NCBI GenBank assembly: GCA_963805975.1
Contig: CAWDVR010000001.1
Location: 576,001 to 640,000, forward strand
From: an uncultured Acidobacteriota bacterium
Lineage (GTDB): Bacteria; Acidobacteriota; Thermoanaerobaculia; Multivoradales; SZUA-115
DNA length: 64,000 nt
Reading direction: 5' to 3'
Both the position numbers and the translations under genes were made by a program. Within the stretch, counting starts at the first letter, position 1. Each line of letters begins with the position of its first letter. The notes beneath the pieces were generated by a model that was not told the DNA's origin, did not search any database, and was given only the letters and a program-made list of their open reading frames with translations. Of this stretch, positions 1-60,773 are shown in pieces.

Positions 1-1
1 C

Positions 2-1810
2 GACGGCTACCGCGTGCTGGCGCGCTGGGACGGGGAGCGGCCGCAGCTCTTCACCCGCCACGCGCTCGACTGGACCGACCGCTTCCCTGCGGTCGCCGCC
101 GCGCTCACCAAGCTCCCGGCCGAGTCCGCGCTCCTGGACGGCGAGATCGTGGCCCTGACCGCCGACGGCAAGCCCTCCTTCCAGGCCTTGCAGCGCGCGC
201 TCCGCGAGGGCAAGGGCGAGCTCACCTACTTCGTCTTCGACCTCCTGCACTTGGACGGGCGGGACCTGGCGGTCCAGCCGCTCCGCGAGCGCAAGGCGCG
301 GCTCGCCAGCCTGCTCGCCAAGGCCCGCGGCACGACGCTTCGTTACAGCGACCACGTGGAGGGCCGCGGCCTCGACTTCCATCGCTCGGCCTGCAAGCTG
401 GGGCTCGAAGGGATGGTCAGCAAGCGGGCCGACGCTCCCTACCGGCCGGGCCGCAGCCGCGACTGGCTGAAGATCAAGTGCGGGCGGCGGCAGGAGGCGG
501 TGATCGGCGGCTTCAGCGAGCCGTCCGGCACCCGCTCGGGCCTCGGCGCCCTGCTGCTGGGGGTGATGGAGGGCGGCAAGCTGCGCTACGCGGGCAAGGT
601 CGGCACCGGCTTCGACGCCGCCACGCTCCGCGACCTGCGGGCCCGGCTCGGAAAGCTCGAACGCGCCAAGCCGCCGTTCGACCCGGCGCCGCCCCGAGCC
701 GAGGTGCGCGGCGCGCATTGGGTGCAACCGCGGCTCGTGGCCGAGGTGAGCTTCGCCGAATGGACGGAGGACGGACGGATGCGCCAGGCCTCGTTCCAGG
801 GTCTGCGGGAGGACAAGAAACCGGCCGAGGTGCGGCGCGAGGAGCCGGCGGAGGCCGCGCCGCCGCCGCCCGCCAAGCCGCGTCCTGCGGCGAGCGGCAA
901 GAAGGCCAAGGCCGGCCGCGGCCGGGGCGACGGGCCGGCGGGTGTGGCGCTCACCCACCCGGACCGCGTGCTCTATCCGGAGCAGGGCCTCACCAAGCTC
1001 GATCTGGCGCGCTACTACGAGAAGGTGGCGGACTGGGTGCTGCCGCACGTCGCCGGCCGGCCGCTCTCCGTGGTGCGCTGTCCGGACGGGAGCACCGGCC
1101 AGTGCTTCTACCAGAAGCACCCGCACCAGGGAGCCACGAGCCCGCTGCTCTCGGTTCCCATCCGTGAGGACGACGGCGACGAAGCGCCCTATCTCTATAT
1201 CGAGGACCTCGCCGGCCTCGTCACCCTGGTGCAGATCGGTGCCCTGGAGATTCATCCCTGGGGCTCGCGCGTCGCCGCGGTGGAGACGCCGGACCGCTTG
1301 GTGCTGGATCTCGACCCGGATCCGAAGCTGCCGTGGGCCACGCTGGTGGCGGCGGCACGCCTGGTGCGCGACCGCTTGGCCGAGCACGGTCTCGAAAGCT
1401 GGGTCAAGACCACTGGCGGCAAGGGGCTTCACGTTTGCGCGCCGCTCTCTGGAAAGACCTCCTGGGACGACCTTCGCGCCTTCGCGCGCGAGATCGCGGA
1501 GGGACTGGCCCGCGAGGCCCCCGAGCGCTTCCTGAGCAAGGCCTCCAAGGCGGCGCGCGCGGGCAAGATCTTCGTCGACTGGTTGCGCAACGGCCGCGGC
1601 GCCACCGCCGTCGCTCCTTATTCGACGCGGGCTCGCGCCGGTGCCACGGTCGCCACCCCGCTCACCTGGGAGGAGCTGGGGCGCGCGCGGCCCGGCCGCT
1701 TCACGGTCGAGACCGTGCCCGCCCGGCTGGCGCGCCTGGCGCGCGACCCCTGGGAGGGGTTTTCGAAGGCGCGGCAGAAGCTGCCGAAGATTGGATCCGG
1801 CCGAGGGTGA
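2..1810 (+). CDS. ligD: NHEJ DNA ligase D (ligase-OB plus C-terminal primase-polymerase domain), 5'-truncated by the window edge
   Basis: The frame opens with DGYR (tail of KxDGxR). It contains LDGEIV, EGMVSK, WLKIK and GKVGTGF, then the PolDom motifs LTHPDRVLYP, DLDPD, KTTGGKGLHV and IFVDWLRNGRGATAVAPYS. Confidence 0.95.
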   Translation, partial: DGYRVLARWDGERPQLFTRHALDWTDRFPAVAAALTKLPAESALLDGEIVALTADGKPSFQALQRALREGKGELTYFVFDLLHLDGRDLAVQPLRERKARLASLLAKARGTTLRYSDHVEGRGLDFHRSACKLGLEGMVSKRADAPYRPGRSRDWLKIKCGRRQEAVIGGFSEPSGTRSGLGALLLGVMEGGKLRYAGKVGTGFDAATLRDLRARLGKLERAKPPFDPAPPRAEVRGAHWVQPRLVAEVSFAEWTEDGRMRQASFQGLREDKKPAEVRREEPAEAAPPPPAKPRPAASGKKAKAGRGRGDGPAGVALTHPDRVLYPEQGLTKLDLARYYEKVADWVLPHVAGRPLSVVRCPDGSTGQCFYQKHPHQGATSPLLSVPIREDDGDEAPYLYIEDLAGLVTLVQIGALEIHPWGSRVAAVETPDRLVLDLDPDPKLPWATLVAAARLVRDRLAEHGLESWVKTTGGKGLHVCAPLSGKTSWDDLRAFAREIAEGLAREAPERFLSKASKAARAGKIFVDWLRNGRGATAVAPYSTRARAGATVATPLTWEELGRARPGRFTVETVPARLARLARDPWEGFSKARQKLPKIGSGRG

Positions 1811-1823
1811 AAGGGGAGGGAGC

Positions 1824-2691
1824 GTGAAAAAGGGCGAGAAAAAACCACTACGGCCGGCGCAGGCTCAACGCCGCCAGCCGGGCATCGAGTCCAGGATGAA
1901 GCCGCAACCGCAGGCCGAGCGGCCGGAGCACCGGGGGAGCGGCAAGCTCGCGGGCAAGGTGGCGCTGATCACCGGCGGCGACAGCGGCATCGGCCGCGCC
2001 GTCGCCATCGCCTTCGCGCGCGAAGGCGCGAACGTGGCGATCCTCTATCTCGACGAGCACGACGACGCCAAGGAGACCCTGCGCCTGGTCGACGAGGAGG
2101 GGGCGCGCGGCCTCGCTGATCGCCGGCGACATCGGCAACGCGAAGTTCTGCCGCCGCGCCGTCGAGAAGGCGGTCAAGAAGCTCGGCCGGCTCGACGTCC
2201 TGGTCAACAACGCGGCCGAGCAGCACCGGCAGGAGTCGCTCGCGGACATCTCCGTCGCGCAGCTCGAGCGCACCTTCCGCACCAACGTCTTCGCCATGTT
2301 CTACCTGACCCAGGCGGCGCTCGCCCACCTGGGCAAGGGGAGCGCGATCATCAACACGACCTCGGTCACCGCCTACCGCGGCAGCCCGAAGCTGATCGAC
2401 TACGCGGCTACCAAGGGGGCGATCGTCTCCTTCACCCGCTCGCTCGCTTCCGCGCTGGTCGAGCAAGGCATCCGGGTCAACGCGGTCGCGCCGGGACCGA
2501 TCTGGACGCCGCTGATCCCGGCCTCGTTTCCCGCCAAGGAGGTGGCGACCTTCGGCTCGGACTCGCCCATGGGCCGTGCCGGCCAGCCCGCAGAAGTGGC
2601 GCCGTGCTTCGTCTTCCTGGCCTCGGAGGACGCCTCCTACATCACCGGCCAGGTACTGCACCCCAACGGCGGCGAGATCGTCAACGGTTGA
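1824..2691 (+). CDS. General-stress SDR oxidoreductase (YdaD/YhdF/YghA-like) with an apparent 1-nt frameshift near 2100
   Basis: GSGKLAGKVALITGGDSGIGRAVA lies in one frame; VNNAAEQ, YAATK and VNAVAPGPIWTPLI lie in another. The frame switch falls at or just after the G-run at 2099-2103. Confidence 0.88.
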
Positions 2692-2709
2692 GCGGGGAGG
2701 AAGAAAGTC

Positions 2710-4240
2710 ATGCCGCAGTGGATCAAGAAAGCCGTTTGGGACCTGGGCCTGCGCCGGAAGAGATACCCGGCGCTCGAAGAAAACCTGACCGTCGACGTCC
2801 TGGTGGCGGGTGCCGGCATCACCGGTCTCACCACGGCCACGCGGCTCGTCCAGGCCGGCGCGAGCGTGGCCGTGGTCGACGCCGGCCGCGTGGCCTCGGG
2901 CACCTCGGGCGGCACCTCGGCGCACGTCACCGAGGTGCCGGAGATCCCGTATCCGAAGCTCCTCTCCCAGCTCGGGGAGGAGCAAGCCCGCATCTTCACC
3001 GCCGCCTACCGTGCCGGCGTGGAGTGGATCAGAGCACAGGCCGCGGGCGGCATCGACTGTGATTTCGAGACCGTGCCGGCGTTCCGCTACAGCGAGCAGG
3101 AAGAGGACCGTGGGAACCTGGCACGGGAAGCCGAGGCAGCCCGCTCGCTGAACGTGGAGGCCGAGGAGATCGCCGAGCTGCCGCTGCCCTTCGCCATCGC
3201 GGGTGCCATCCGCTTCGCTCGCCAGGCGCAGTTCCACCCCATCCGCTACGTGGATGGCCTGGCGCGGGCCTTCGTCGCGGCCGGCGGCCGGATCTTCGAG
3301 GAGACCCGTCTGACGGACTGGGAGGAGAAAGAGGGCAAGGTCGAGGCCCGGGTCGGCTCCCCCAGGGCGCGGGCGGAGCACCTTGTGCTCGCCACCCACA
3401 CGCCGCCGAACTTCAACCTGTTGCAGACCGAGCTCATCCCGCGGCGCACGTACCTCCTCGCCCTGCGGCTGCGCGAGACGCCTCCCGAAGGCCTGTTCTG
3501 GGACTCGGAGGAGCCGTACCACTATCTCCGGGCCGTGCCCGATCCGGAGGCTGCCGGTGGCAACGGGCGGCTGCTGCTGGTGGGCGGCGAGGACCACACC
3601 ACCGGCCACGACCCGGACACCGCCGAGCGCTATCGGCGCCTGGTAAGGCTGGGCCGGGAAGCGCTTCGCCGTCGAGTCCGTGGTGGCGCGCTGGTCGGCG
3701 CAGTTCTACGAATCGGCCGACGGCCTGCCCTACATCGGCCGGAGCCCCTTCGCCGAGCAGGTGCTCGTCGCCACCGGTTTTTCCGGCGTGGGCCTCTCGG
3801 CCGGCACCATGGCGGGCCTGCTGCTCTCGGACCTGATCCAGGGGCAGAGCAATCCCTGGGCAGAGATCTTCGCCGCCACCCGTCTGCGGCCCCTGGCCGC
3901 CGCGCCGGGCTTCGTGCGCGAGAACGCCGCTTCGGCCGCGGCCTTCGTCAGCGACCGCCTGAAGCCGTCCGAGGCCGAGTCGCTGGACGACGTGCCGCGC
4001 GGCGAGGGTCGCCTCATCCGGCTCGACGGCGAGAGGCTGGCGGTGTACCGCGACCTCGAGGGCCGGCTCAGCGCTCGCTCGCCGGTCTGCACTCACCTCG
4101 GTTGCCTGGTGCGCTGGAACACGGCCGAGGCCACCTGGGACTGTCCCTGCCACGGCGGCCGGTTCAAGCCGGACGGCACCGTGCTCGAAGGCCCGCCGAC
4201 GTCGCCGCTCGAGCCGCGGGAGCTGCCACGCAACCACTAG
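2710..4240 (+). CDS. FAD-dependent oxidoreductase with C-terminal Rieske domain (YhfW-like), apparent 1-nt insertion near 3644
   Basis: GAGITG FAD motif, QFHPIRY and GGEDHTTG in the first frame; DGLPYIG and the Rieske motifs CTHLGC and WDCPCHG in the shifted frame. Confidence 0.88.
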
Positions 4241-4316
4241 GAGCCGAGCTTTCGTGAAAGGCTCGTGGAAACGCAGATGTCAAGCCAAGAGAAAGTATTT
4301 CTATTCGGCATCGATG

Positions 4317-4331
4317 GGCACGCGGGTTGCA
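4317..4331 (+). promoter_or_regulatory. Candidate sigma-54 (-24/-12) promoter upstream of the YciF-like gene
   Basis: GGCACG-CGGG-TTGCA matches TGGCACG-N4-TTGCW with the correct GG-N10-GC spacing. It lies in an AT-richer intergenic region about 60 nt before the ATG. Confidence 0.55.
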
Positions 4332-4390
4332 ATTGCTGTATAGCGTAGGCAGACGAAGTACTCCAGTGAGACAGTGAAAAAGGAGAGGTT

Positions 4391-5005
4391 ATGGAGCTTT
4401 CTACGCTACGCGATCTGTACGTACACCAGCTCAAGGACGTGTACAGCGCGGAGAAGCAGATCACCAAGGCGTTGCCAAAGATGATTCGCGGCGCTTCCAG
4501 CTCGGAGCTGGTCTCGGCGCTCGAGGAACATCTTTCCGTCACCGAGCAGCAGATCGCGCGCCTGGAGGAAATTTTTACAAACCTCGGCGAGTCGACCCGC
4601 GGCCCCAAGTGCAAAGGCATGGAAGGGCTGCTCGAGGAAGGAGCGGAGACGCTCAAGGCCGAAGGTGACGCGGACGTGCTCGACGCCGCCATCATCGCGT
4701 CCGCACAGCGCGTCGAGCACTACGAGATCGCGGCCTATGGCACCCTGCGCACCTACGCCGAGCTCCTGGGCGAGAAGGACGCTGCGGCGCTGCTCGACAC
4801 CACGGCCGACGAGGAGGGCGAGGCGGACAAGCTGTTGAGCGAGATCGCTCAAACCTGTGTCAACCAGCTCGCGGCCAACGGCAACGGCTCCGGAGCGCCG
4901 AAAGAGCCGCGTCGCAACACGACCAATCGGCCCCGTTCCTCGCGCCGCCAGGCGACTACCAACGAACGCTCTGCGACCAAAGCCACCGCCAGCGGCAAGA
5001 AGTAA
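4391..5005 (+). CDS. yciF: Ferritin-like DUF892/YciF family stress protein with a basic C-terminal tail
   Basis: LKDVYSAEKQ, CKGMEGLLEEG and AQRVEHYEIAAYGTL motifs; RBS AGGAGAGG. Confidence 0.9.
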   Translation: MELSTLRDLYVHQLKDVYSAEKQITKALPKMIRGASSSELVSALEEHLSVTEQQIARLEEIFTNLGESTRGPKCKGMEGLLEEGAETLKAEGDADVLDAAIIASAQRVEHYEIAAYGTLRTYAELLGEKDAAALLDTTADEEGEADKLLSEIAQTCVNQLAANGNGSGAPKEPRRNTTNRPRSSRRQATTNERSATKATASGKK

Positions 5006-5124
5006 GAGGAAGATCGACTCAGGACTCAGGCAGCAGAGCAGTGCCGCCTCGAGAAAAGTAAGGGATGCAACTTCTTTGGACTGAGCGGCAATGCTTGCCG
5101 CGACAACCAGAAAGGAATTACATC

Positions 5125-5532
5125 ATGGCGAACCAGAAAGAGAACAATCCGGCTCAGGGCCAGCAGGGCCAGGGCCAGCAGGGTCAGCAGGGTGGCTACC
5201 AGAAGCATCAGGGCCAGAATCCAGGCCAGGATCAGGGTGGCCAGGGTCAGCGGCAGGGCCAGCAGCAGGGTGGCGGCTCGCAGAAGCCGTTCGACCAGGG
5301 CCAGCAGGGTGGTGGCATGGGCCAGGGGCAGCAGGGCGGCTTCCAGAAGCCGTCCGACCAGGGCCAGCAGGGCGGGTTCCAAAAGCCGCTCGACCAGGGC
5401 CAGGGTCCGCGCGAGGAAGGGTCCGACCGCGGCCAGAAGCCCGCTCAGGGCAGCGTCAACCCGCGCGCCGAGGACGAGGATCGCGACAACAAGCGCTCCG
5501 AGCGCGGCTCGAGCGACACCGGCTCGCGCTAG
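5125..5532 (+). CDS. Gln/Gly-rich low-complexity hydrophilic protein
   Basis: RBS AAGGA before ATG 5125; QGQQG-rich sequence with strongly GC3-biased codons; acidic/basic tail. Confidence 0.7.
   Translation: MANQKENNPAQGQQGQGQQGQQGGYQKHQGQNPGQDQGGQGQRQGQQQGGGSQKPFDQGQQGGGMGQGQQGGFQKPSDQGQQGGFQKPLDQGQGPREEGSDRGQKPAQGSVNPRAEDEDRDNKRSERGSSDTGSR
5281..5406 (+). repeat. Three intragenic imperfect repeats encoding QKPxDQGQ(QGG)
   Basis: CAGAAGCCGTTCGACCAGGGCCAG at 5281, CAGAAGCCGTCCGACCAGGGCCAG at 5344 and CAAAAGCCGCTCGACCAGGGCCAG at 5380. Confidence 0.8.
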
Positions 5533-5634
5533 CTCCCACCGTGCGAGCCCGAGGCTCGCAGTTGACCGCTAGCAGCACCGCAGCAAGTGGCCGGCTCCGC
5601 GAGGGGCCGGCCGTCCCTTTCCCTGAACTTCTCG

Positions 5635-7524
5635 CTAGGGCATTTCACCCAACATTCGCCGCGCGAGCGTGCGATGGTTGCTCTCCCCGGCCGCCGAATC
5701 CTCGGTTGCTGCCAGGTAGCGCTCGAGCGCCTGGCGGGACTCCGCCGGCCGCCCCAGCTCCTTGTAGAGGGTGCCCAGGTGGAAGGCGGCGAGCGTGCAA
5801 GAGCCCGCCTCCACGCCCACCAGGGATTGCACGCTCTCGAGCTCGGCCAGAGCATCGGTCTTTCTGCCGTCGAGATAGAGCAGCACGCCCAGGTTCGAAG
5901 TCATCGCGCAGCGTTGGTACGGCACGGCGTCGCGCCCCCGGCGCAGCTCGGAGATCGCCTCCGCCCGGCGCCCGCGCCGCTCGAGCACCACCGCCAGTTG
6001 CTCGTACGGGTGAGGGTTGTCGGGCTGATCCGCCTGCACCAGGCGGAGGTCCCGCTCCGCCCCCTCGAGATCGCCCCGGACCCGGAGGATGCGCGCCCGG
6101 TCGAGGAGGGCCGAGGTCACGGGCCGGATCGCCAAGGCGTCGTTCAAGGTCGTGAGCGCCTCGTCCGGCCTGCCGGCCTCGAGCAGCGCGTGGCCGAGCT
6201 GGGCGCGGTTGAAGGCCGAGGTCGGGTCGCTCACCAGCCCCCGTTCCCAGAGCGCCAGCTCCGAGCCCCAGGCGCGGTTGTAGCGCGCGGTCTGGGCGGC
6301 GAGCGGCAGGAGCAGGAGACCGGTGCCGAAGAGCAGCGCTCGCTCGGCGCGCCGGCGGCGCGCCGGAGCGAGCTCCCCGGCCGCGAGCCAGGCCGCTCCC
6401 AGCGCCGTCATCCAGAAGCCCAGCAGCGGCAGGTAGAGGTAGCGGTCGTGCACGAGCTGCTCGGGGATGAAGGCGTTGACGTTGCAGGCCGGCAGCAGAG
6501 GCACGAGGAACAGCACTGGACCCAGCCAGAGCCGCGGCCGCCGGCGCACCAGCCAGACGGCGAGCACCGCCGCCCCAGCGACCGCCAGCAGCGGCAGCAC
6601 GAGGTTTTCGAAGCCGGCATTGGCCGTCGTGACGGCGCGCAGGGGGTACGACGGTCCCAGCCAGGCTGGCAGTAGCGCCTGCCGCAGATAGAAGGCGAGG
6701 AGCGACGGCGCCGTGAGCAGCAGCCCGACGGGCCCCATCCGCCACGGGGTCTGGACCTCGACCATGCCCAGCACCCAGGCACGTGCGGCAAGGAAGAGGA
6801 CGGCCAGGACGACGAAGGGGAGGCTGGTGAGGATGCCGCGCCGCCAAGCCGCGCGCCACCAAGCTTTTTGCCGGGGCTCGCCGCGGCCGGCCTCACCGCG
6901 GTCGACCCAATGCCCGGCGACCGCTGTGGCCACGAGCACCGGGAAGACGACGGCGATCTCCTTGGCACCGAGAGCCAGGAGGTAGCAGGCGAGCGCGGCC
7001 AGCCACCGCCCGCGGCTCGGGCTTTGCCTCCCGGGAAGGATCAGGAGCAGCGCCAGCAGCTGGAAGAGCGCGGTCAGCAGGTCCGGGGAGCCCGAGATCC
7101 AGGCCACGGACTCGACGTGGACCGGGTGCACGGCGAACACCGCGCCGATCGCCGCGGCGGGCGGCGTAGCGAACCCGAGGCGGCAGAGCAGGAAGAAGGC
7201 AGCGACCACCACGCCGGCGTGCAGAGCCATGTTCGCCAGGTGCCAGCCCACAGGGCTCTCGACCCCGAAGAGTGCATGGTTCGCCGCCAGCCAGGCCACG
7301 AATACCGGCCGCCAGTAGTTACTCCAGGCCTCCTCGCGCGCTCCCTTGAAGGCCCAGACATCCGAGGTCAGGGCCTCGCCCAGCCGGTCCGGGCCACGGA
7401 GAAGGTGATTCTCCAGAATTTGGACTCTGTCGTCATATACGAATTTTCCGTCCAGCGAGTTGGCGTAGGTCGCTAGAGCCACCACCACCAGAATCAACGC
7501 ACAAAGCCCTTGGTTTTTTCGCAC
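5635..7524 (-). CDS. TMTC-like GT-C membrane glycosyltransferase with C-terminal TPRs
   Basis: YANSLDGKFVYDD, NYWRP, HPVHVESVAWIS, LGAKE and DRYLYLP motifs; many TM helices followed by TPR repeats. Start placed at GTG 7524, which is uncertain. Confidence 0.82.
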   Translation of the reverse strand: MRKNQGLCALILVVVALATYANSLDGKFVYDDRVQILENHLLRGPDRLGEALTSDVWAFKGAREEAWSNYWRPVFVAWLAANHALFGVESPVGWHLANMALHAGVVVAAFFLLCRLGFATPPAAAIGAVFAVHPVHVESVAWISGSPDLLTALFQLLALLLILPGRQSPSRGRWLAALACYLLALGAKEIAVVFPVLVATAVAGHWVDRGEAGRGEPRQKAWWRAAWRRGILTSLPFVVLAVLFLAARAWVLGMVEVQTPWRMGPVGLLLTAPSLLAFYLRQALLPAWLGPSYPLRAVTTANAGFENLVLPLLAVAGAAVLAVWLVRRRPRLWLGPVLFLVPLLPACNVNAFIPEQLVHDRYLYLPLLGFWMTALGAAWLAAGELAPARRRRAERALLFGTGLLLLPLAAQTARYNRAWGSELALWERGLVSDPTSAFNRAQLGHALLEAGRPDEALTTLNDALAIRPVTSALLDRARILRVRGDLEGAERDLRLVQADQPDNPHPYEQLAVVLERRGRRAEAISELRRGRDAVPYQRCAMTSNLGVLLYLDGRKTDALAELESVQSLVGVEAGSCTLAAFHLGTLYKELGRPAESRQALERYLAATEDSAAGESNHRTLARRMLGEMP

Positions 7525-7603
7525 GGGGAGAGTAGAGTACCCGGAAATTGTTGAAGTCGATCCTCGGGACCTGGCGGTCTTCCCGAAAGCTACTGGAGGA
7601 GTC

Positions 7604-8251
7604 ATGAAAAAAGCAGGTTTCGGTCTCTCCGCTCTCGTTGCGGCCCTGGTTGTGCTCCCGGTTCTCGCGGGCACGACGTTGACGTTCACCACCGCGGATC
7701 CGGCGGCGCCGCTGCCCGACAACACCGGCCTTTTCACCGCCTGTCAGAACATCACGGTGGCCGCGATGCCGACCACCATCACCGAGGTGACGGTGCAGAT
7801 CTCTTCGGCGCACTCCTGGGCCGGCGACCTGGTCGCCCGGCTCACGTCCCCGAGCGCCTCGGTTCTGACGCTGGTCAACCGCCCCGGGCGCACCGGCACC
7901 GGCTTCGGCGACAGCAGCAACCTGGCGGCGGCGACGCCGATCACCTACAGCGACACAGCGGCCTCCGGTCTGTCGGCCGAGACCATGGGCAGCCCGGCCG
8001 CTTGCGGTGACACCTCGGTCATCGGCTCCACCCCCGCCTGCCTGGCCGACAACTTCATCCCGGCACCGGCAGTCACTGACATTCCTCCGGGCGTGGGCAC
8101 CAACCTCGCCCAGTTCGACGGCGCGGACCCGAACGGCGTGTGGCAGCTCTGCATCGCCGACGGGGGGCCTGGCGACACCGGCACCCTGAGCTCCTGGAGC
8201 ATCACCGTGACCTCGACGCCGGTGGAGCTGCAGAGCTTCACCATCGAGTAA
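7604..8251 (+). CDS. Secreted Thr/Ser-rich protein with a proprotein-convertase P-domain-like fold and C-terminal PVELQSFTIE motif
   Basis: Sec signal peptide; HSWAGDLVARLTSP, NGVWQLCIAD and GDTGTLSSWSI are typical of P-domains; strong RBS GGAGGA. Confidence 0.8.
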   Translation: MKKAGFGLSALVAALVVLPVLAGTTLTFTTADPAAPLPDNTGLFTACQNITVAAMPTTITEVTVQISSAHSWAGDLVARLTSPSASVLTLVNRPGRTGTGFGDSSNLAAATPITYSDTAASGLSAETMGSPAACGDTSVIGSTPACLADNFIPAPAVTDIPPGVGTNLAQFDGADPNGVWQLCIADGGPGDTGTLSSWSITVTSTPVELQSFTIE

Positions 8252-8275
8252 GCGACCGCTCTCGCGGTTGCGGTT

Positions 8276-8308
8276 GCAAGGCCACCCTTCGGGGTGGCCT
8301 TGCCGTTT
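8276..8308 (+). terminator. 12-bp hairpin with a cUUCGg loop and weak U-tract (terminator or mRNA stabiliser)
   Basis: GCAAGGCCACCC-TTCG-GGGTGGCCTTGC followed by CGTTT. Confidence 0.7.
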
Positions 8309-8330
8309 CAGGGAGGTCGCGCGCCGGGCC

Positions 8331-9965
8331 ATGACCGTTCGACCCTTCACCCGGCTGGCTGCCGTGCCGGCCCTGGCGTTTCTCGCCTTGGCCTCGGCCG
8401 CCTGCCAGGGCGACCCGCCGGCGAGCTCGCCCCCACCACCCGCCTCGACCTCGAACCTCCAGCCGCTGCCGGCACCTTCCACCGGAGGCTTCGAGCCCGA
8501 GGTTCGCGAGCAGCTCGACCGCCTGCGTTCGCAGGTCGCTCTGCTCGAGACGGGGCGCGCCTCTGCGGCCGATCGGGCCGCCGGATACGGCGCGCTCGCC
8601 ATGCTCTACCATGCCTACGGGCTCGATGCCGCGGCCCGCGCCTGTTACCAGAACGCGCGCACCCTGGCTCCCACCGAGCCGCGCTGGCCTTACTACCTGG
8701 GACGGCTCGATCTGGCCGCCGGCCGCAATGCCGAGGCGGCAGAGGCATTCGAGGCCTCCTTGAAGCTCGAGCCGGGCGAAAAGCTGAGTCTCCTGGGTCT
8801 CGGTCAGGCGCGCCAGGCCGAGGGCGGGCTCGAGCAAGCGAGGAGCGCGTTCGAGTCGGCACGGGCCAGGGAGGCCGAGAGCGTTCTCGCACACTTCCAC
8901 CTGGGGCAGATCGCGGCCGAGCGCGGCGAGCTGCCGACGGCGATCCGGCACCTCGAAGCGGCGCTTGCCGCGCAGCCGGACGCCGAGCCCGTGCAGCGGG
9001 TGCTCGCGGGCGTCTACGGGCGGGCCGGGGACCGCCTGCGCGCCGCGGAGGTGAGCCGCAGGGGAGGCAAGGCGGCGCTCGCCTATGACGACCCGCGGAT
9101 GCTGGCCGTCGAGACGCTCGCCAAGAGTGGCCGCGCCCTGGTCGACCGCGGCGTGGCGGCGTTCGCCGAGGGTCGCTTCGCCGATGCCGAGGCGGCTTTC
9201 CGCCAGGCGGTGGCCAGCCTGCCCGACGACGCGGATGCGCACTTGAACCTCGGCTCGGCGCTCTTCGAGCAAAGGAAGCTCCCCGAGGCCGAGCAGGAGT
9301 ACCGCCGTACCCTGGAGCTCGATCCGGCCGCCACCCGCGCGCGCTTCAACCTCGGTACCCTGCTCGCCGCGAGCGGCAGGCGCGACAAGGCGATCCGGGA
9401 GTACGAAGCGGCGCTGCGCAGTGATCCCGGCCACGTCTCCGCGCACTTCAACCTGGCCAACTCGCTGCTCACGCTCGGCCGTTTCGCCGAAGCCGAGGGC
9501 CACTTCGCGGCGGTCGTGGAGCGGGAGCCGGCCCGGTCCTCCGCCCGCCTGGGCCTTGCGGTGAGCCGGTCCCGGCTCGGGCGCGACGCCGAGGCACGGC
9601 AGGCACTGGAGGAGGGCCTCGGTCTGCGGCCGGCTGACCGCGTGCTCACCGAGGGCTTGGTGCGGCTACTGGCCGCGAGCCCCGACCCGGCGGTTCGCGA
9701 CGGCGCGCGCGCGCTGGCGCTCGCCCGCCAGCTCATGGCCGCCCAGAGCCAGCTCGAGAGCGTCGAGGCCCTGGCCATGGCCCTGGCGGAGACCGGCGAC
9801 TTCGCGCAGGCGGCGCAGCTCCAGGCCAACGCTCTCGCCGCCGTCCGCAGCTCGAGCCGGCCGGAGCTGGTCGAGCCCGTGGAGCGCAACCTCGCCCTCT
9901 ACCGCGCCGGCAAGCCCTGCCGGGAACCCTGGCGGGGCGAGGACTTCGGGGGGACGTGGGAGTAG
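8331..9965 (+). CDS. TPR-repeat lipoprotein
   Basis: Signal peptide ending LASAAC (lipobox-like); many TPR units (WPYYLG, AHFHLG, AHLNLG, ARFNLG, AHFNLA); C-terminal RDGARALALA and LALYRAGKPCR. Confidence 0.82.
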   Translation: MTVRPFTRLAAVPALAFLALASAACQGDPPASSPPPPASTSNLQPLPAPSTGGFEPEVREQLDRLRSQVALLETGRASAADRAAGYGALAMLYHAYGLDAAARACYQNARTLAPTEPRWPYYLGRLDLAAGRNAEAAEAFEASLKLEPGEKLSLLGLGQARQAEGGLEQARSAFESARAREAESVLAHFHLGQIAAERGELPTAIRHLEAALAAQPDAEPVQRVLAGVYGRAGDRLRAAEVSRRGGKAALAYDDPRMLAVETLAKSGRALVDRGVAAFAEGRFADAEAAFRQAVASLPDDADAHLNLGSALFEQRKLPEAEQEYRRTLELDPAATRARFNLGTLLAASGRRDKAIREYEAALRSDPGHVSAHFNLANSLLTLGRFAEAEGHFAAVVEREPARSSARLGLAVSRSRLGRDAEARQALEEGLGLRPADRVLTEGLVRLLAASPDPAVRDGARALALARQLMAAQSQLESVEALAMALAETGDFAQAAQLQANALAAVRSSSRPELVEPVERNLALYRAGKPCREPWRGEDFGGTWE

Positions 9966-9978
9966 CCCGGCTGCAGGG

Positions 9979-11736
9979 TCATCGCACCCGGTGAGCGAAG
10001 GCCCCCGCCGCAATCCCCCGCCACCGCTCCTTCCGCCCATCCGGCCACCGGATCTCGATATTCAGCGTCGAGCCGTCGTTGCCGGCGCCCAACCCCACCA
10101 GCAGCCGCGGATCTCTCGCCGAGAGGTAGCTGCCGTCCGTGTGGACGCGGTGGTGGAGCGCCGGGCCCTTCCTACGGCTCACGGTGACGCGGGCCTGGAG
10201 CGCATCGCCGCCCGCGGCCGTGGCCAGGCTCACGCCGAGCCAGGGCAGGCGGTTGCCGAGCTGGTTCTCGAGAAGGCGCACCGGGCCGCCGTTGTTGGTC
10301 AGGATCACATCGGTGTCGCCGTCGTTGTCGAGATCGCCGAAGGCCGCGCCGCGGCCTACCTCGGAGAGCGCGAAGACCTCACCGCCACGAGCCGTGGTGT
10401 CCTCGAAGGTGCCGTTGCCCCGGCTGCGGAAGAGCTGCTTGACCTGGTGCAGCGGGAAAGGGTCGCCCCTGTCGGCCAGCGCCGGGATGTCGCGCACCGC
10501 GCCGTTGGTCACCAGCAGATCGAGCCAGCCGTCGTTGTCGTAGTCGAGCCATCCGGTGCCAAAGCCGGTGTAGGGAAAGCTCGGCGCTCCCAGAAGGGCA
10601 CCGCGGCGCGCATCGGCGAACGTGCCGTCGCCCTGGTTGACGAACAGGGCATGGGTCTCGCCCGTCAGGTGGGTGACGAAGAGATCCTCGTCGCCGTCGG
10701 CGTCGAAGTCGCCGGCGGCGACGCCCATCGAAGCCTCGACCGCGCCGGAGCCGCTCACCGCGCAGCCGGCGAGCGCCGCCTCGTCCTCGAACCGGCCGCC
10801 GCCCTGGTTGATCCAGAGCTGGTTGGGCGCGGCGTCGTTGGCGACGAAGAGGTCGAGGCGGCCGTCCTGGTCGAAGTCGGTGGCCACGGCGCCCAGGGCC
10901 GGACCGTCCGCGGCGGCGATGCCGGAGGCCAGGGTCGTGTCCTCGAAAGTGCCGTCGCCGCGGTTGCGGAGCAGCCGGTCGGGCACCGGGTGGAAGCTCA
11001 TGGGGCCGCAGTAGTCCACGGCTCCCGACGCGCCGCGGCAGAGGCGGTGGTTGTCGAAGGTGAAGTCCACGTAGTTGGCGATGAAGAGATCGAGCCGGCC
11101 GTCCTGGTCGTAGTCGAAGAAGGTGGCGGAAGCCGAGAAGCGGCTGTCGCCGGCCCCGGAGCGCGCCGTGGCGTCCTCGAAGGTGCCGTCACCGCGGTTT
11201 CTCCAGAGCTGGTTGGCGCCGAAGCGGGTGACGTAGAGGTCCACGTGGCCGTCGGCGTCGTAGTCCCCCGTCGCCGCTCCCATGCCGTAGCCGCTGGAAT
11301 CGAGCCGGCTCGACGCGGTGACGTCCACGAACCGCGGCTCGAGGCGGCCTATGGCCGAGAGCGTCAGGTCGTTGCGATACAGGCGATCCCGCAGGGGTGT
11401 CATGCCGGGCGCCGGCGGCGCCAGCGCATCCGCGAGGGACTTGCCCGGCCCGAGCAGCGCGCCTTGCATCAGGAAGAGGTCGAGATCGCCGTCGCCGTCG
11501 AAGTCGAAGAGCGCCGCGCCGGCCCCCATCACCTCCACAATGTAGCGCTCCCCCGAACGGCCGTTGAAATGGACGAAGTCGAGCCCGAGCTCGCGGGCGC
11601 GCTCGGTGAAGACCTCGCCGGAAGCGGTCGGGCTGACCTGCGCGGTGGTTGGATCAGGTTGCTCCGGAGGGCCGCAGGCGACAAGACTGGCCGCCAGGGA
11701 GCATGGGAGCGCGAAGCAGGTCAGCGGAGAGCTCAC
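9979..11736 (-). CDS. CRTAC1 family protein (FG-GAP/Ca-binding beta-propeller plus ASPIC/UnbV domain), probable lipoprotein
   Basis: Repeated D[FY]DxDGxxD motifs, GRGAAFGDLDNDGD, GSYLSARDPRLLVGLG and IRWPDG. The GTG start overlaps the upstream stop (GTGA); LVAC lipobox. Confidence 0.88.
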   Translation of the reverse strand: MSSPLTCFALPCSLAASLVACGPPEQPDPTTAQVSPTASGEVFTERARELGLDFVHFNGRSGERYIVEVMGAGAALFDFDGDGDLDLFLMQGALLGPGKSLADALAPPAPGMTPLRDRLYRNDLTLSAIGRLEPRFVDVTASSRLDSSGYGMGAATGDYDADGHVDLYVTRFGANQLWRNRGDGTFEDATARSGAGDSRFSASATFFDYDQDGRLDLFIANYVDFTFDNHRLCRGASGAVDYCGPMSFHPVPDRLLRNRGDGTFEDTTLASGIAAADGPALGAVATDFDQDGRLDLFVANDAAPNQLWINQGGGRFEDEAALAGCAVSGSGAVEASMGVAAGDFDADGDEDLFVTHLTGETHALFVNQGDGTFADARRGALLGAPSFPYTGFGTGWLDYDNDGWLDLLVTNGAVRDIPALADRGDPFPLHQVKQLFRSRGNGTFEDTTARGGEVFALSEVGRGAAFGDLDNDGDTDVILTNNGGPVRLLENQLGNRLPWLGVSLATAAGGDALQARVTVSRRKGPALHHRVHTDGSYLSARDPRLLVGLGAGNDGSTLNIEIRWPDGRKERWRGIAAGAFAHRVR

Positions 11737-13433
11737 GGCGCGAGGTCCGCGAGCATGCGCTGGAGGTGGGAGTGAGAAGGGTGGCGGGAGACGGCCCTGC
11801 GCAGCACCTCCCGGGCTTCCTCGATCCGCCCCGCGCCGCGCAGCAGCACCGCCGCGTTGCGGGCCGCGTCGGCTGGATAGGGCGGCGCCTCGGCGGTGGC
11901 GAGGAAGACGGCGAGGGCCTCGTCGCCCCGGCCGACCTCGGCCAGGCAGGAGCCGTAGTTCACCCGCGTGAGCGCCTTCTCCTGGACATAGCCTGGACGG
12001 CCGGCGAAGGCGGCGAGGGCTTGCTCGTAGTAGGGCAGCGCCCGCGCCGCGTCCCGGTGCCGGGTGTGGAACAGCACCGCCAGGCCGTGGTAGCCGAAGG
12101 GCGCGAGAGGGTCGGCAGCGATCGAGCCCTCCAGCAGGGCCTGCGCCTCGTCGATCCGCCCTTCCTCCAGGGCGTGCGCGGCCAGCCAGTCGAAGGCGGC
12201 CGGGTTGCCGGGATCGACCGCCGCCACCCGCTGCCAGAGCGCCACGTCGCTCGCCCAGAAGCGGTCGTGGTAGAGGTTGCTCGCGGCCCACACGGCGAGA
12301 AGACCGGCCGCGAGCCCCCAGCGCAGGCGCCGCGCGCGCACCTTCTCCACCAGCAGCCAGGCGGCGACGAGGCAGAGCCCGAGCACCGCCAGGTAGAGAT
12401 AGCGCTGGTGCACCAGGTAGGTGGGGCGAAAGCCGCGCACGTTCCCGGCCGGCGCCAGGCAGAACAGGCACCAGAGCGCGCCGAAGCCCACCACGCGCGC
12501 TCGGCGGGCGGCGAGCGCCACCGTGGCCAGCACCACGACCCAGACGAGCACCGATCCCCAGGCCGCGGCCGAGCCCCAGCCTTCCACGTAGCGCACCGGG
12601 TAGCTGGGCGAGAGATGCAAAGGCCAGAAGAGGAACCGCAGGTACTCGAGCCCGAGCCGCGGCAGGGTGGGCAGTACCTCTGCCCAGCTGGGCCCGGGAT
12701 AGACGCCGAGCAGGCTGGTGAGCACCAGCTTGCGGGCCGCAAAGTAGACGACGGTTACCCCGAGGTAGGGCAGGAGCCCGCGGACGCGCCGGGCGAGCGG
12801 GCGCTGGGGGGCCAGCCAGTGCTCGGTGAGCGGCACCAGCGCGAGGAGCGAGAGCGCGGCCTCCTTGAAGCCGAGCGACAGCAGGAAGAGGAGCGCGCCG
12901 GCCGCGAGGCACCGTCTCCCGCCACCCTCGAGCCAGCGGATGTGCGCCACCAGGGCGAGGAGCATCAGCGCCGAGGCGGGCGGATCGTTGAACGCCGTCG
13001 CCACCCAGGCCACGGACTCGCCGTGCGCCGGGTGCACGGCGAAGAGCAGGGCGCCGAGGAGAGCCACCTCGTCACCCAGGCGCAGCCGGCGCAGGAAGGC
13101 GAGCGCCGCGAGGCACGCGGCGAGGTGCAGGGCCACGGCCACGGCGTGCCAGACGACGGCGCTCGGACCGAAGAGCTGGTAGAGCAGCAGGTAGAAAGTG
13201 AAGAACAGGGGCCGGTAGTAGTTCGAGCGCTGGTCCTCCGCGCGGGTCAGCGACAGCACGTCCCGCTGCCAGAAAGACGGCAGGCTCGACCAGCTCCTGA
13301 GGTTCGGGTTGTTGACCACCTGCTCGTGGTCGTCCCAGACGAAGCCGTGCGCGAGGGTCGGCGCGTAGACGGCGAGCACCAGGACGGCGATCGCCGCCAC
13401 CTCGAGCCAGAGCCGGCGCCGGGACTCAGACAT
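11733..13433 (-). CDS. Second TMTC-like GT-C glycosyltransferase with TPRs
   Basis: FVWDD, NYYRP, HPAHGESVAW, GFKE and QRYLYL motifs; TPR tail. Confidence 0.82.
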   Translation of the reverse strand: MSESRRRLWLEVAAIAVLVLAVYAPTLAHGFVWDDHEQVVNNPNLRSWSSLPSFWQRDVLSLTRAEDQRSNYYRPLFFTFYLLLYQLFGPSAVVWHAVAVALHLAACLAALAFLRRLRLGDEVALLGALLFAVHPAHGESVAWVATAFNDPPASALMLLALVAHIRWLEGGGRRCLAAGALLFLLSLGFKEAALSLLALVPLTEHWLAPQRPLARRVRGLLPYLGVTVVYFAARKLVLTSLLGVYPGPSWAEVLPTLPRLGLEYLRFLFWPLHLSPSYPVRYVEGWGSAAAWGSVLVWVVVLATVALAARRARVVGFGALWCLFCLAPAGNVRGFRPTYLVHQRYLYLAVLGLCLVAAWLLVEKVRARRLRWGLAAGLLAVWAASNLYHDRFWASDVALWQRVAAVDPGNPAAFDWLAAHALEEGRIDEAQALLEGSIAADPLAPFGYHGLAVLFHTRHRDAARALPYYEQALAAFAGRPGYVQEKALTRVNYGSCLAEVGRGDEALAVFLATAEAPPYPADAARNAAVLLRGAGRIEEAREVLRRAVSRHPSHSHLQRMLADLAP

Positions 13434-14709
13434 CGAGGTGCTTCTGCACTTCGCGGTCGCGGCTCACCCGCCAGATCTTCGAGTCGAGGTAGTAGTGCTG
13501 CATGGCGAAGCCGAGAAGCAGGGCGGCGAAGAGCTGCTCGCCCAGGCCGAGGGCGGCGGGGTCGCGCACGCCGGCCATCATGCCCAGCGAGTTGAGCAGG
13601 AGCTGGTCCAGCTCCAGGCCGGTCCAGGACCTGAGCCAGCCGATCCACGGCCCACGGTAGAAGCCGAAGGTGAAGACCAGCCCCACCAGCGCGTAGACCG
13701 GCACGCTGCGAAAGAAGAGCTGTGCCCAGCGGTGGCGTGGTTCCTGGCTCGCCCCGTACTTGCGCCTGCCATAGGCGTAGACGATGGCGTGGTACTGGAT
13801 GTTGTGGCCGACAGTGACCAGGGGCACCAGGAACGCCGCCATCAGCGGATGGCTGAAGGCCACGAAGTGGAGAGGCAGGAGCGGCGCCAGGTAGAGCAGC
13901 TTGCTGGCGTTGACCCCCCGGCCGGCCAGAGCCAGCCGCGCCTGGTAGCCGAGATAGAAGAGCAGCGCGCCGAGATAGGCGGCCCAGGCCACCGGGTGGA
14001 GCAGGGCGGCGACGCTCCAGCCGGCGACCAGCGGCCGGTCGAGCCCGAGGTCCGGCATGCCCGGCGTGCGGCGGAAGTAGTGGCTGGTCATGAACAGCAC
14101 CAGCGGCATGTACATGGCGAGGTTGAAGAACCAGCGATCGACGCGCGGGTCCCCGGTGTCGCCGGCTTTGCGCTGGTAGAGGCTGACGAAGCCCCAGTGC
14201 TGGCGCACCACGTGGTAGTAGGCCCACAGCCGAAAGCCGGTGAAGAAGGCCAGCGCCCCGCCCGCGAGCATGGCCGGAGGCAGCGGCCGGCCGATCCTTC
14301 CGAGATAGGCGCCCGCGGCGTAGGGCAGCAGGATCACCAGCGGCCCGACGAGGAACCAGAGGAAGGAGAAGCGCAGCACCCTGCCGCGGTTCTGCCACTC
14401 GTCCGGGTCGGCGAGCGTGCGGCCGAGCGTCGCCCAGACGTGCGGCGCATCGAGGAGGAAGGCCCAGCTCGCCACCACCAGGAGCTCCAGGGTGAGCGGG
14501 ACCTCGAGGCCACCCAGAGCCAGGGTGGCGAGCGGATCGTGCAGAGGATCGGCCAGGGTGGCGATGGCGTAGAAGATGACGCCGACATAGAGCCACCCGG
14601 CGAGGGCCGAGCCGATGTAGAAGCCCAGGTCCCGCCGGCGGTCGAGGAGCCAGACGAAGCGCGAGCCGCTGCCGGCGGCGGTCCTGGCCTCTGCTGCAGC
14701 GATGCTCAT
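13426..14709 (-). CDS. Uncharacterised polytopic membrane protein with His/Gln motifs
   Basis: ATG at 14709; multiple TM segments; motifs PHVWATL, YHVVRQHWGF, GHNIQYH and QHYYLDSKIW. The stop overlaps the start of the next gene. Confidence 0.75.
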   Translation of the reverse strand: MSIAAAEARTAAGSGSRFVWLLDRRRDLGFYIGSALAGWLYVGVIFYAIATLADPLHDPLATLALGGLEVPLTLELLVVASWAFLLDAPHVWATLGRTLADPDEWQNRGRVLRFSFLWFLVGPLVILLPYAAGAYLGRIGRPLPPAMLAGGALAFFTGFRLWAYYHVVRQHWGFVSLYQRKAGDTGDPRVDRWFFNLAMYMPLVLFMTSHYFRRTPGMPDLGLDRPLVAGWSVAALLHPVAWAAYLGALLFYLGYQARLALAGRGVNASKLLYLAPLLPLHFVAFSHPLMAAFLVPLVTVGHNIQYHAIVYAYGRRKYGASQEPRHRWAQLFFRSVPVYALVGLVFTFGFYRGPWIGWLRSWTGLELDQLLLNSLGMMAGVRDPAALGLGEQLFAALLLGFAMQHYYLDSKIWRVSRDREVQKHLDV

Positions 14710-43511: not shown

Positions 43512-46500
43512 TCAGCCGTCCGTGGCCTGGGCGCGCAGCAGCGCCGCCAACCGTTCCCGCGCCCCGGCCGGCCCGCCGGGCGGCAGATCCTCCAGCACGG
43601 CCAGCGCCTCGGCGGCGATCGCCTGGCGGCGAGCCCGGTCCGGCAGCGTGGCGCGGCTGACCTCGTCCAGCGAGGCGAGGGCGGTGGCCGCGTCGCCCGC
43701 CTGGGCTCCCAGCCGCGCGCGGAGCAGCAGATCGGCGGCCGAGGCACTGGTGGCGAGGAGAGGGTCGAGCAGCCGCACCGCCTCGCTCGCCGCCACCGGC
43801 TCGCCGCCCGCGAGGCGCCAGGCGATGCGGAGGCGCGTGGCGGCGTTGTAGAGCGGGTGCCGGGGCGGGACCGCGGCGAGGGCCCCTTCGAGCGCCGCGA
43901 GCTCACCTTCTGCGCGCCCGTCGGCCCGCGGGTCGGCGAGGCGCCAGCCGGCGAGAACGGCGCTGGCGGCGGCGTCGCTCTCCGCCCAGGCGCGGAGCTC
44001 CGCCGGCCCGCGTTCCTCGGCCATCGCCGGGCGCAGGGCGAGGAGCAAGGCGGAACGCACCTCCTCCGAGGGCTCGGCCACGAGCGCCGGGTCCGCCGCG
44101 CGGCGGCGCCCTCCCGCGAGGTCCAAGAGGAGAAACGCGGCATGCCGCTCGGACGCCGAGGACAGGGCCGCCGCGGCGCGCAGCGCCCGAGCGGGCTGCC
44201 GCTGGCGGATGAGCCAGCGCACCACGTAGGTGCCGTCCGCGCCCGGCGGCAGGCGCCGGATGGAGTCGAAGGGGGCGATCAGGCGGTCGAGACCCGCGCG
44301 GCCGATGGGGTTCGAAAGGGCGCGGGGCGAGCGCGTCTGCAGCAGGTTCCGGCGGTCGCTGTTGAGCTCCGCACCGGCGGCGAGCTCGCGCGAGCCGGAG
44401 CCGTCGAGCACCCGGGCGAGGAGCAGATCCTCGGCGGTCTCGACCCCCACCAGGCGCCACGCCTCGGCCGAGGCCGCGGCGAGAAACGGCGCGCCGCCCC
44501 GCCCGAGCGGCTGGCCGGAGGCCACGAAGAGCACCGCTCCCCACGGGTACGGCTGGTAGACCTCGACGTGGGGAAAGGCCTCCGAGAGCGTCGCGACGAG
44601 GCTCCGGAGCAGGGGCGCGTCCACGAAGTCGAGCCCGATCCACTGCACGAAGACGCCGCCGGCAGCCAGATGCTCGCGGGCGAGCTCGAAGAACTCGCGG
44701 GTGAAGAGGTGCGAGGAGCCGCTGGTCCAGGGATGCGAGGGCTGCGACACGATGGCGTCGAAGCGCTGGCGCGAGAGGGTGAGCACGCTCCGCACGTCGC
44801 CCACGTGCAGCGACAGCCGCGGGTCGGCGAGCGGGTCGCGGCGCCGCTCCCCGGCGAGATGCCGGTTGGCGGCGATCATCTCGGGCTCGAGCTCCACCAC
44901 GTGGACCTGCTCCACGGACGAGGGCAGATCCTCGATCGAGTGGCCGGCCCCGAGCCCCACCACCAGCAATTTGCCGACGTTCTCCCGCACCGCGCCCGGC
45001 AGCAGCGTCAGCCAGCGGGCCACGGCGTAGCGGCCGGGGCGCGCGCCGGGCGGCTGCACCGCCGACTCCGGAAGCCCATTGCCGGTGAGGCGCCATTCGG
45101 CGCCGTCCTCGTGCAGCAGCACGGTGGCGCCCCGGCCCACGCCGTAGAACATCACTTCACCGAAGCCGGAGGTTGCCGAGGCTTCCGCGTCCACGGGCCC
45201 CTCTTCGACCGCCGCCGGTGTCTCGCGAGGTGGCCGGCGGGCGGTGTCCGCCGCCGGGCCGGCGAGCAGGATGGCGAGGGGCGAGGAGCGCAGCACGTTC
45301 CAGGGCGTGGGAGGCCGCACGAAGGCGAGGGCGGCGAGGCCCACGGCCGCCGCCACCAGGGCCCAGTCGAGCCGCGGGCGCTCGGCGAGAGCGACCACCG
45401 CGGCGAGCGCCAGGCTCACCGTCGCCGCCAGCGCCATGGCGCCGGCAAAGCCCAGGCCGGGCAGCAGCCAGAGGCCGGTCGCGACCGTGCCGGCCACGGC
45501 GCCGATCGTGTTCCAGGCTAGCGTCCGGCCGGCCGCGGTCGAGGCCTGGCGGGCGTCCCCGGCGAGCACGCGGACGGCGAGCGGGAAGGTCGCGCCCAGG
45601 CAGAGGGCGCCGGGCAGGATCAGGAGGCCGCCCAGGATCGCCGTCGCCGCCAGCCGGCTGTGCCCCGCGGCGGCGAGATCCGCGCCCCACGTCGGCACCC
45701 GGTCCGCGGCGGCGAAGGCGGCGAGCGACAGGAGCGCCGCGCCGAGCTGCGCCACCGCCAGCCCGAGGCGGGCTCGCTCGCGGCTCTTCGCCAGGCCGGC
45801 GGCGATCGACGCCCCCAGGGCGATGGCCACCAGGAACGCCGCCAGCATGGTGCCCAGGGCGTAGACGCTGCCGCCCACCAAGTGGGTGAGAAGCCGGCTC
45901 CAGACGATCTCGCAGCCCAGCGCCACCGCGCCAGAGAGCGCGGCCACCGCGAGCGGCCAGAACGGCCCGCGCTCACGGGTCGTGGGCGTGGCCCCGGCGC
46001 TCTCCTCGGGCGCCAGGCGGGGCGAGGCGGCCCCGAGCCCTGCCGCGAGGAGAGCTACGCAGACGTTGAGCCCCACGCCGGCCAGCGTGGCGCGGCCGAG
46101 CCCCAGCGTGGGGAGCAGCAGGAAGGCGGTTCCCACGGCCCCCGCCGCCGCGCCGAGCGTGTTGGCGGCGTAGAGCGTGCCCACGCGGGTGCCGATCGCC
46201 TCCTCGCGCCGTACCGCGTGCCGCACCAGGAGCGGCAAGGTGACTCCCATCAGAGCGGTGGGGACGAGGAGGATCAGGAACGAGGAGGCGAGCTGGAACA
46301 GCGTCGAAACGGCGAGCCCACCGTCCGCGCCGTACACCCCGTCGGTGGCCAGCAGCAGCACCTCGAGGCGGCCTGGCCGCGGCGATGAGCGAGGGCACGG
46401 CGAGCGCCAGCAGGCCGATGGCGAGCTCGATCACGGCATAGGCGAGAAGCGGCCGGGTACTACGGCGCGCCCAGCGCGCACCGGCCGCGGCACCCGCCGC

Positions 46501-46656
46501 GAGCCCGGTCATGTACGCGGCGAGGACCGAGACCAGCGCCAGCTCCGAGGCGCCGAACACGAGCGCCAGCTCTTCCATCCACACCGTCTCGAACACCAGC
46601 GCCGAAGTGCCGGAGAGCACGAAGCAGGCGAGGAGGAGCAGGAAGCGGAGGTCCAT
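43512..46656 (-). CDS. Fused multi-TM / spermidine-synthase-like SAM-binding protein, apparent frameshift near 46370
   Basis: N-terminal SGTSALVFETVW..VLAAYMTGLA in one frame, continuing as PTALMGVTLP and LYAANTLG; SAM-fold motifs VGLGAG, VELEP, GDVR and DAIVSQPSHPW; helical C-terminus. Confidence 0.82.
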
Positions 46657-46664
46657 GGCCGGGC

Positions 46665-52067: not shown

Positions 52068-52082
52068 CGAGGCGGGAAGCTT

Positions 52083-52111
52083 AAACGAACAAGGCACCCC
52101 GGAGGGTGCCT
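52083..52111 (-). terminator. 8-bp hairpin with partial U-tract downstream of the second PVEL gene
   Basis: The minus strand reads AGGCACCC-TCCG-GGGTGCCT-TGTTCGTTT. Confidence 0.65.
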
Positions 52112-60772: not shown

Positions 60773-60773
60773 G

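Follow-up and report, generated by a model that had tools for sequence, protein, structure and literature searches.

A stretch of 64,000 nt from an Acidobacteriota genome (G000; 5.36 Mb, 96% complete), referred to here as the window, carries a cluster of six genes around a secreted protein, PVEL-A, that ends in TPVELQSFTIE. The nearest named relatives belong to Thermoanaerobaculia/Acidobacteriota, from which we place the genome tentatively in that class. The cluster (positions 5635-14709) makes up only the right-hand part of a larger locus, whose core is found 5-8 kb upstream of the window (locus L288): a PorU-like peptidase of family C25, encoded between two small stand-alone proteins that we call catchers (Table 1). 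The original prediction had read the six genes as a self-contained pathway that glycosylates and displays PVEL-A, with a TPR or ASPIC domain recognising its tail. All six were present at about the coordinates it had given, and the overlapping stop and start regions it had described in the last three minus-strand genes were real: the His-motif gene and the gene for TMTC-like protein 2 share 8 nt (ATGTCTGA, 13426-13433), and the latter shares 4 nt with the ASPIC gene (GTGA, 11733-11736). TMTC-like protein 1 probably starts at a GTG at 7524; the longest open reading frame extends to 7737 and overlaps the PVEL-A gene. Scripted gene calls came from a home-made caller, which missed the His-motif gene.

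Table 1. Features of the locus and of the second PVEL gene. Positions refer to the window, or to contig C1 of genome G000 where marked C1.
Feature	Position	Strand	Remarks
PMT_2 GT-C gene flanking the core	C1:566410-567900	-	
Catcher 1, 133 aa	C1:567969-568370	+	exported
PorU-like C25 peptidase	C1:568367-570742	+	PF01364, E 1.8e-79
Catcher 2, 126 aa	C1:570739-571119	+	exported, lipobox-bearing
PMT_2 GT-C gene flanking the core	C1:571116-572963	+	
TMTC-like GT-C/TPR protein 1	5635-7524	-	FVYDD motif, D31-D32, SNYWRP, K188-E189, HDRYLY, C-terminal TPRs
PVEL-A cargo, 215 aa	7604-8251	+	P-domain (PF01483); signal-peptide-like N-terminus; ends TPVELQSFTIE, then stop
PVEL tail of PVEL-A	8216-8251	+	TPVELQSFTIE, then stop; predicted donor strand A
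TPR protein	8331-9965	+	lipobox-like signal; immediately 3' of PVEL-A
FG-GAP/ASPIC-UnbV (CRTAC1-like) protein	9979-11736	-	lipobox-like signal; PF13517 E 6e-48, PF07593 E 2e-11
TMTC-like GT-C/TPR protein 2	11733-13433	-	FVWDD motif, D34-D35, SNYYRP, KE, HQRYLY
His-motif integral membrane protein	13426-14709	-	family-less
PVEL-B, second cargo, 256 aa	52156-52926	-	fold unrelated to PVEL-A; ends LPVELMSFEAD, then stop
Second PVEL locus	43512-52926	-	PVEL-B, then PPIase, sulfatase-TPR, PPIase and spermidine-synthase-like membrane protein genes

PVEL-A had been described as a Thr/Ser-rich secreted protein. Mature PVEL-A indeed contained 25.5% Ser+Thr against a median of 9.8%, a value reached by none of the 395 called genes on contig C4; it consists of one proprotein-convertase P-domain (PF01483, E 3.7e-13) and is not a low-complexity Ser/Thr protein. 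It had 55 homologues, and PVEL was near-invariant in the 40 that were aligned. Several homologues bore a transmembrane sorting-type tail in place of PVEL, and one of them (P0053) matched PF07589. The same tail terminated unrelated secreted proteins of approximately 120 to 2400 aa, among them nuclease, DUF11, LTD and propeller proteins. In the source genome it occurred twice, on PVEL-A and PVEL-B, both of which ended 11 residues after the start of the tail and neither of which matched a model of the C-terminal domain (CTD) of type IX secretion systems (T9SS). The tail of 11 residues has an acidic last residue and lacks the combination of C-terminal motif, transmembrane helix and basic cluster; no Pfam or NCBIfam model covers either the tail or the catcher. 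We conclude that the PVEL tail is a signal.

Clustering of the neighbours of PVEL genes led to a peptidase family in eight loci. In the source genome this family is represented by the C25 peptidase of the core. PorU is the C25 sortase of the attachment step of the T9SS in Porphyromonas gingivalis, where it acts on the CTD, according to PMC5445135 and PMC5562754 (structure: PDB 6za2). It was also the best PDB match of the C25 peptidase (6za2, E 9.9e-16), with GHGG and TC aligned. His651, Cys693 and Arg727 were invariant in all six aligned stand-alone C25 sequences. By eye, R727 resembles the STTR of PorU, at a place where the HMMER alignment put a gap; which arginine of PorU corresponds to the conserved one of sortase-type enzymes is an assumption on our part.

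The catchers belong to no known family and had 287 homologues; a lipobox-like motif was found in 39 of 115 catchers. The model of catcher 1 was a fibronectin type III (FN3) domain with no strand before residue 44. It aligned with single-domain FN3 chains (9y5y_B, 3mpc_B, 8oq9_A, 2e3v_A) only from target residue 11-23 on. In a wide VIA structure search the catcher reached Z scores up to 9.8, all from near-tied FN3 domains, and Foldseek returned no match at E ≤ 0.001 and only weaker FN3 rows. The catcher is thus predicted, from its model, to be an FN3 fold without strand A. Large proteins, in many cases fused C25s, also contain the same domain in embedded form, and there it has an upstream strand T-P-V-x-L/V-x-S-F-x-A (21 domains). 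A regular expression for this strand matched only 13 of 26 embedded domains, since the set included classic FN3 domains and variants, and it was replaced by an alignment and matrix on the 21 domains. With the matrix built from embedded strand A alone, PVEL-A and PVEL-B ranked first and second among 4289 called genes, and 56 of 71 tails scored at least 6 bits, compared with one of 115 stand-alone catchers. The tail therefore matches, in sequence, the strand that is absent from the catcher. A donor-strand pair is recognised by an acceptor that lacks one strand and a donor whose sequence matches it, and both features are found here in sequence and predicted structure.

Among 41 genomes of the order, the tail pattern gave 69 matches in 19 genomes; three were dropped (two that end in TGG and a Phe-less one in G033), which left 66 matches in 17 genomes. 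With thresholds of at least 112 bits for a stand-alone catcher and at least 788 bits for a stand-alone C25, tail, catcher and C25 were all present in the same 17 genomes. None of the three occurred in the other 24, where the best scores were 35 bits for the catcher and 170 bits for C25. The catcher lay at most 2 kb from the C25 gene in 15 of the 17. The profile varied patchily between families and also within one genus, g13, in which G025 had all three and G015 none. In a sample of the class (151 genomes, 135 of them new), the strict tail occurred in ten genomes and the catcher in all ten. Two further genomes with a strong catcher had variant tails, nine with Phe and a stop in G075 and two in G041; three control genomes had none. 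The sequence PMELLSFHLEQ on G041:C45 was not flagged as a C-terminus and was excluded from the tail counts. The C25 gene adjoined the catcher gene in all eight new loci of the class. Outside the class, among 301 genomes of the phylum, a stand-alone catcher was detected in two, both of which had tails (three in G387, 12 in G413), while G428 and G367, with the embedded domain only, had no tails and one intermediate case had a single tail. The out-of-class prediction that the tail follows the stand-alone catcher held. Tail, catcher and C25 very probably form one system.

Other arrangements of the same domains were observed. Locus L289 (G000:C2:600783-608242) encodes a fused cargo-FN3-C25 protein of 1612 aa that has a strand A of its own; a 71-aa peptide and radical-SAM-like and PqqD-like genes come next (labels assigned by eye). 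In G098, a PPIase encoded divergently from a PVEL gene has a catcher domain fused to its C-terminus (L296:8988-12201). A second, more divergent catcher type, stand-alone or fused to a larger secreted protein, lies beside sulfatase-TPR genes (L235:8355-9785, L236:8034-9587, L311:9856-10386 and L331). In two genomes a second stand-alone C25 lies close to a PVEL gene on a contig that gave no catcher match (L246:9115-12714 and G013:C86; G031:C193 and C118).

The two TMTC-like proteins are putative glycosyltransferases. An AlphaFold2 model of the membrane domain of TMTC-like protein 1 (pLDDT 87.8, pTM 0.90) had Pmt4 (E 3.2e-4), AglB, Pmt1-Pmt2 and ArnT as its top Foldseek matches, with TM-scores of approximately 0.36-0.49, and predicts a GT-C fold; TMTC-like protein 2, which is 33% identical to it, was assigned to GT-C by alignment only. 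Both retain C-terminal TPRs and the DD, RP, KE and R-x-x-Y cores of human TMTCs, as listed in the motif table of PMC7801869, and neither keeps the H/K of SHKSYRP. The DUF1736 loop with its DW motif (PF08409) had no match in G000 at E ≤ 1, nor on either membrane domain, and a PDB sequence search with the TMTC alignment gave no match at E ≤ 1. The TMTC-like label was borne out as to the GT-C fold, modelled for protein 1 only, and the intact DD motifs, but the DUF1736 hallmark was not detected. The CRTAC1-like architecture of FG-GAP repeats followed by an ASPIC/UnbV domain was present in the ASPIC protein, one of 14 ASPIC matches in the source genome. The two lipoprotein labels given earlier to the TPR and ASPIC proteins rest on lipobox-like motifs recognised by eye (SAAC, LVAC), and the ASPIC protein is without a basic n-region. 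The His-motif protein had no match in Pfam, NCBIfam or Atlas and had 350 homologues, with named sources including Calditrichaeota, KSB1 and Cytophagales. It was rejected as a core part: it was present in six of 41 relatives, three of which were without the system.

The association of these genes with PVEL genes was counted in 60 PVEL neighbourhoods of at most 20 kb each, drawn from 16 genomes. TMTC-like genes were present in three (0.4 expected from genome counts), all of them P-domain cargo loci, ASPIC genes in 14 (3.1 expected) and stand-alone C25 genes in five (0.2 expected). The enrichment of TMTC and ASPIC genes, which had been set beforehand as a check on the original prediction, was thus observed. 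Sulfatases (19/60) and PPIases (15/60) were the commonest neighbours, in raw counts without a background rate. In the source genome, the adjacency exceeds chance, because its only two TMTC-like genes flank one of only two PVEL genes in the whole genome. The TMTC-PVEL linkage persisted through reshuffled gene order, and it also occurred in G013, G018 and G025, where both the gene set and the TMTC groups were different. In a quick tree, linked TMTCs fell into several separate groups (four label changes versus 17.4 when shuffled); six of 56 weak TMTC matches had been left out of the fetched set. A measured, partial link of glycosyltransferases to the sorting system is new here.

In one relative, G004, the same five genes form one contiguous run together with catcher 2, C25 and catcher 1; TMTC1 abuts catcher 2 and C25, and no PVEL gene lies among them. 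The cluster is therefore tied to the machinery and not to a single cargo, and the locus in G000 represents the same arrangement with an unrelated block inserted. This block (G000:C1:572988-581600, window 1-5600 and upstream) carries nitrilase-like, Ku-like, LigD-like, SDR-like and ferritin-like genes (labelled by eye); G001 has a shorter version (L247) and G004 none (L248).

Further observations concern the remainder of the window and one relative. Read-through or frame changes, possibly assembly indels, were seen in the SDR-like (1848-2691) and FAD-oxidoreductase-like (2710-4257) genes, labelled by eye, and in two open reading frames of the PVEL-B locus, the first PPIase (48864-52097, minus strand) and the spermidine-synthase-like gene (43512-46656, minus strand). 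An open reading frame of 155 aa at 5065-5532 (plus strand) has short Gly/Gln-rich tandem repeats. Tandem repeats of (N/D)W(K/R)AGS stand at the start of an ABC permease reading frame (53953-54040, minus strand; start region near 56754), and 57194-63127 (plus strand) holds a gene cluster that includes B12-binding radical SAM and fatty-acid-desaturase genes. In G008, which has no PVEL system, a TMTC-like gene lies beside prepilin-peptidase-like and pilin-like genes (L267:8558-17698, by eye).

We propose a protein-sorting system of which this locus forms the half with the cargo and accessory genes. The cargo would be exported by means of its signal peptide, as its sequence suggests. The PVEL tail likely inserts as the absent first strand of the FN3 catcher; such docking by strand complementation is probable on the combined grounds of sequence, profile and single-chain model. 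By analogy with PorU as described in PMC5445135 and PMC5562754, the PorU-like C25 likely either cuts off the tail or links the cargo to an anchor in the envelope, and we slightly favour the view that it performs cleavage or transpeptidation. The GT-C enzymes likely glycosylate some of the cargo en route, or build the anchor; the chance that those of the cluster glycosylate PVEL-A appears about even. The TPR and ASPIC proteins may be scaffolds and not tail readers. As to origin, a cis arrangement of cargo, complete FN3 domain and PorU-like C25, which persists at C2:600783-605621, may have been split after strand A, and one catcher and one peptidase would since have served many cargoes in trans. 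Taken as a whole, sorting by tail, catcher and C25, with TMTC glycosylation of some cargo, is the best explanation and seems fairly probable.

Several points weigh against this explanation or limit its reach. The genomes in the profile are related, and the profile overstates independence because they are kin. Fused C25 proteins are present in the majority of genomes, with a C25 match of some kind in 37 of the 41, so the peptidase activity could serve another purpose. No conserved cleavage residue was apparent by eye before the tail. Of the 60 neighbourhoods, 34 held none of the accessory families tested, and the TMTC-like genes were confined to the three mentioned. In favour of the explanation, the TMTC link is concentrated on the P-domain cargo, with TMTC-like genes beside seven of 25 P-domain PVEL loci and none of 132 tail-less P-domain loci; in this comparison, however, the control came mostly from other phyla, and the PVEL loci fetched by way of the PVEL protein include near-duplicates and may overlap with the genomes of the order. 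TMTC-like genes occurred in 25 of the 41 genomes, 11 of which lacked the system, and G032 has a gene of the TMTC1 group without it.

This last distribution, unlike that of PVEL, bears also on the notion of a self-contained pathway dedicated to PVEL-A, as does the lack of a TMTC match in three of the 17 PVEL genomes (G007, G009, G020). Together with the arrangement in G004, where the five genes persist without an adjoining PVEL gene, the mismatch of profiles makes glycosylation look like an optional accessory module and not a dedicated pathway. The flanking of PVEL-A by the genome's only two TMTC-like genes, the TPR gene in the same place after PVEL-A in several genomes (L001, L005, L006, L007) and the ASPIC enrichment would fit a dedicated pathway, which we nevertheless regard as very improbable. 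A TPR or ASPIC protein as its tail reader was rejected on the profile: ASPIC genes were present in 40 of 41 genomes, in up to 33 copies, and did not track the tail, whereas catcher and C25 did. The likely reader is instead the strand-less FN3 protein encoded beside the PorU-like peptidase, outside the window. A different possibility is that the sorting system is real and the GT-C enzymes act on acceptors other than PVEL-A, such as a lipid or glycan anchor of the peptidase, the ASPIC and TPR proteins, or the Ala/Pro-rich linkers of the catchers. G004 has both TMTC orthologues beside catcher and C25 and no close PVEL-A orthologue (best E 3e-13), ArnT, a lipid-modifying GT-C, was among the fold matches, and genomes without the system have clusters of TMTC, sulfatase, ASPIC and TPR genes (L262, L269, L277); attachment of cargo to a glycolipid by PorU, reported in PMC5445135, points the same way. 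Against this stand the TMTCs of separate groups that adjoin the same Ser/Thr-rich P-domain cargo, and the restriction of all three TMTC-positive neighbourhoods to P-domain cargo loci, and we consider other acceptors unlikely.

The tail might also serve non-covalent tag-and-catcher anchoring without any processing, with C25 acting as a scaffold or trimming something else. The same profile and fold evidence fits such anchoring, the lipobox-like motif of a third or so of the catchers would be sufficient to anchor cargo on its own, and the lack of a visible cleavage site agrees with it. The invariance of the three C25 residues speaks against it, however, and several genomes have at least ten cargoes and one catcher gene, which a recycled adaptor fits better than a permanent anchor. 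Anchoring without processing thus seems quite improbable.

The proposed tail-catcher-C25 system resembles and differs from several known ones. With the T9SS it shares a C25 enzyme with a His/Cys dyad and a PorU-type N-terminal region, and a C-terminal signal on many unrelated secreted cargoes. The signal here, however, has 11 residues in place of a folded CTD, its likely reader is a strand-less FN3 protein, and the C25 scored below the cut-offs of both PorU equivalogs (NF033707, 194.7 bits with a cut-off of 420; NF052324, 132.3 bits with a cut-off of 450). PorV gave only three short sub-cut-off matches in G000, while the positive control was detected; SprA and the T9SS CTD model PF18962 had no match in G000, but their positive controls likewise gave none. 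In donor-strand complementation, known from chaperone-usher and type V pili, a terminal β-strand of one chain completes the incomplete β-sandwich of another. A terminal strand is predicted to do so here as well, yet the donor is carried as a tag by unrelated cargoes, a separate adaptor serves as acceptor, and nothing suggests head-to-tail polymerisation. Some of the sorting-type tails are, we presume, of the PEP-CTERM/exosortase or IPTL-CTERM type. The PEP-CTERM/exosortase system likewise uses a C-terminal signal that is short and can be exchanged on the same family of P-domain cargo, with accessory TPR and glycosylation genes nearby, whereas the PVEL tail has neither a transmembrane helix nor a basic end and the enzyme is a C25 and not an intramembrane sortase. 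The TMTC-like proteins, finally, share with the eukaryotic O-mannosyltransferases TMTC1-4 the GT-C membrane domain, the TPRs and the motif cores, and differ in the missing DUF1736 match and the altered SHKSYRP motif. The open-licence full-text literature, a scope that leaves out subscription journals and supplements, yielded no description of a tail-catcher system.

Few protein-sorting signals exist, and they are usually read by membrane enzymes or translocons. We tentatively propose, as a composite that falls somewhat short of an even chance, a T9SS-independent pathway of Acidobacteriota. In it, a split FN3 domain on a reusable catcher would be completed by the tail, a PorU-like transpeptidase would then attach the cargo to the envelope, and TPR-bearing accessory enzymes would be supplied per cargo (TMTC-like glycosyltransferases here; sulfatases and PPIases elsewhere). 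PVEL-A would be the first substrate that can be named for TMTC-like enzymes of bacteria. If true, a signal read by completion of a split domain and a PorU-like enzyme without a T9SS would be a new design, and would hint at where, outside Bacteroidota, attachment of the PorU type can operate. The system supplies a natural tag of 11 residues and a catcher of 90 residues that are easily testable in E. coli, and PVEL-A is a concrete candidate substrate for the bacterial TMTC-like glycosyltransferases.

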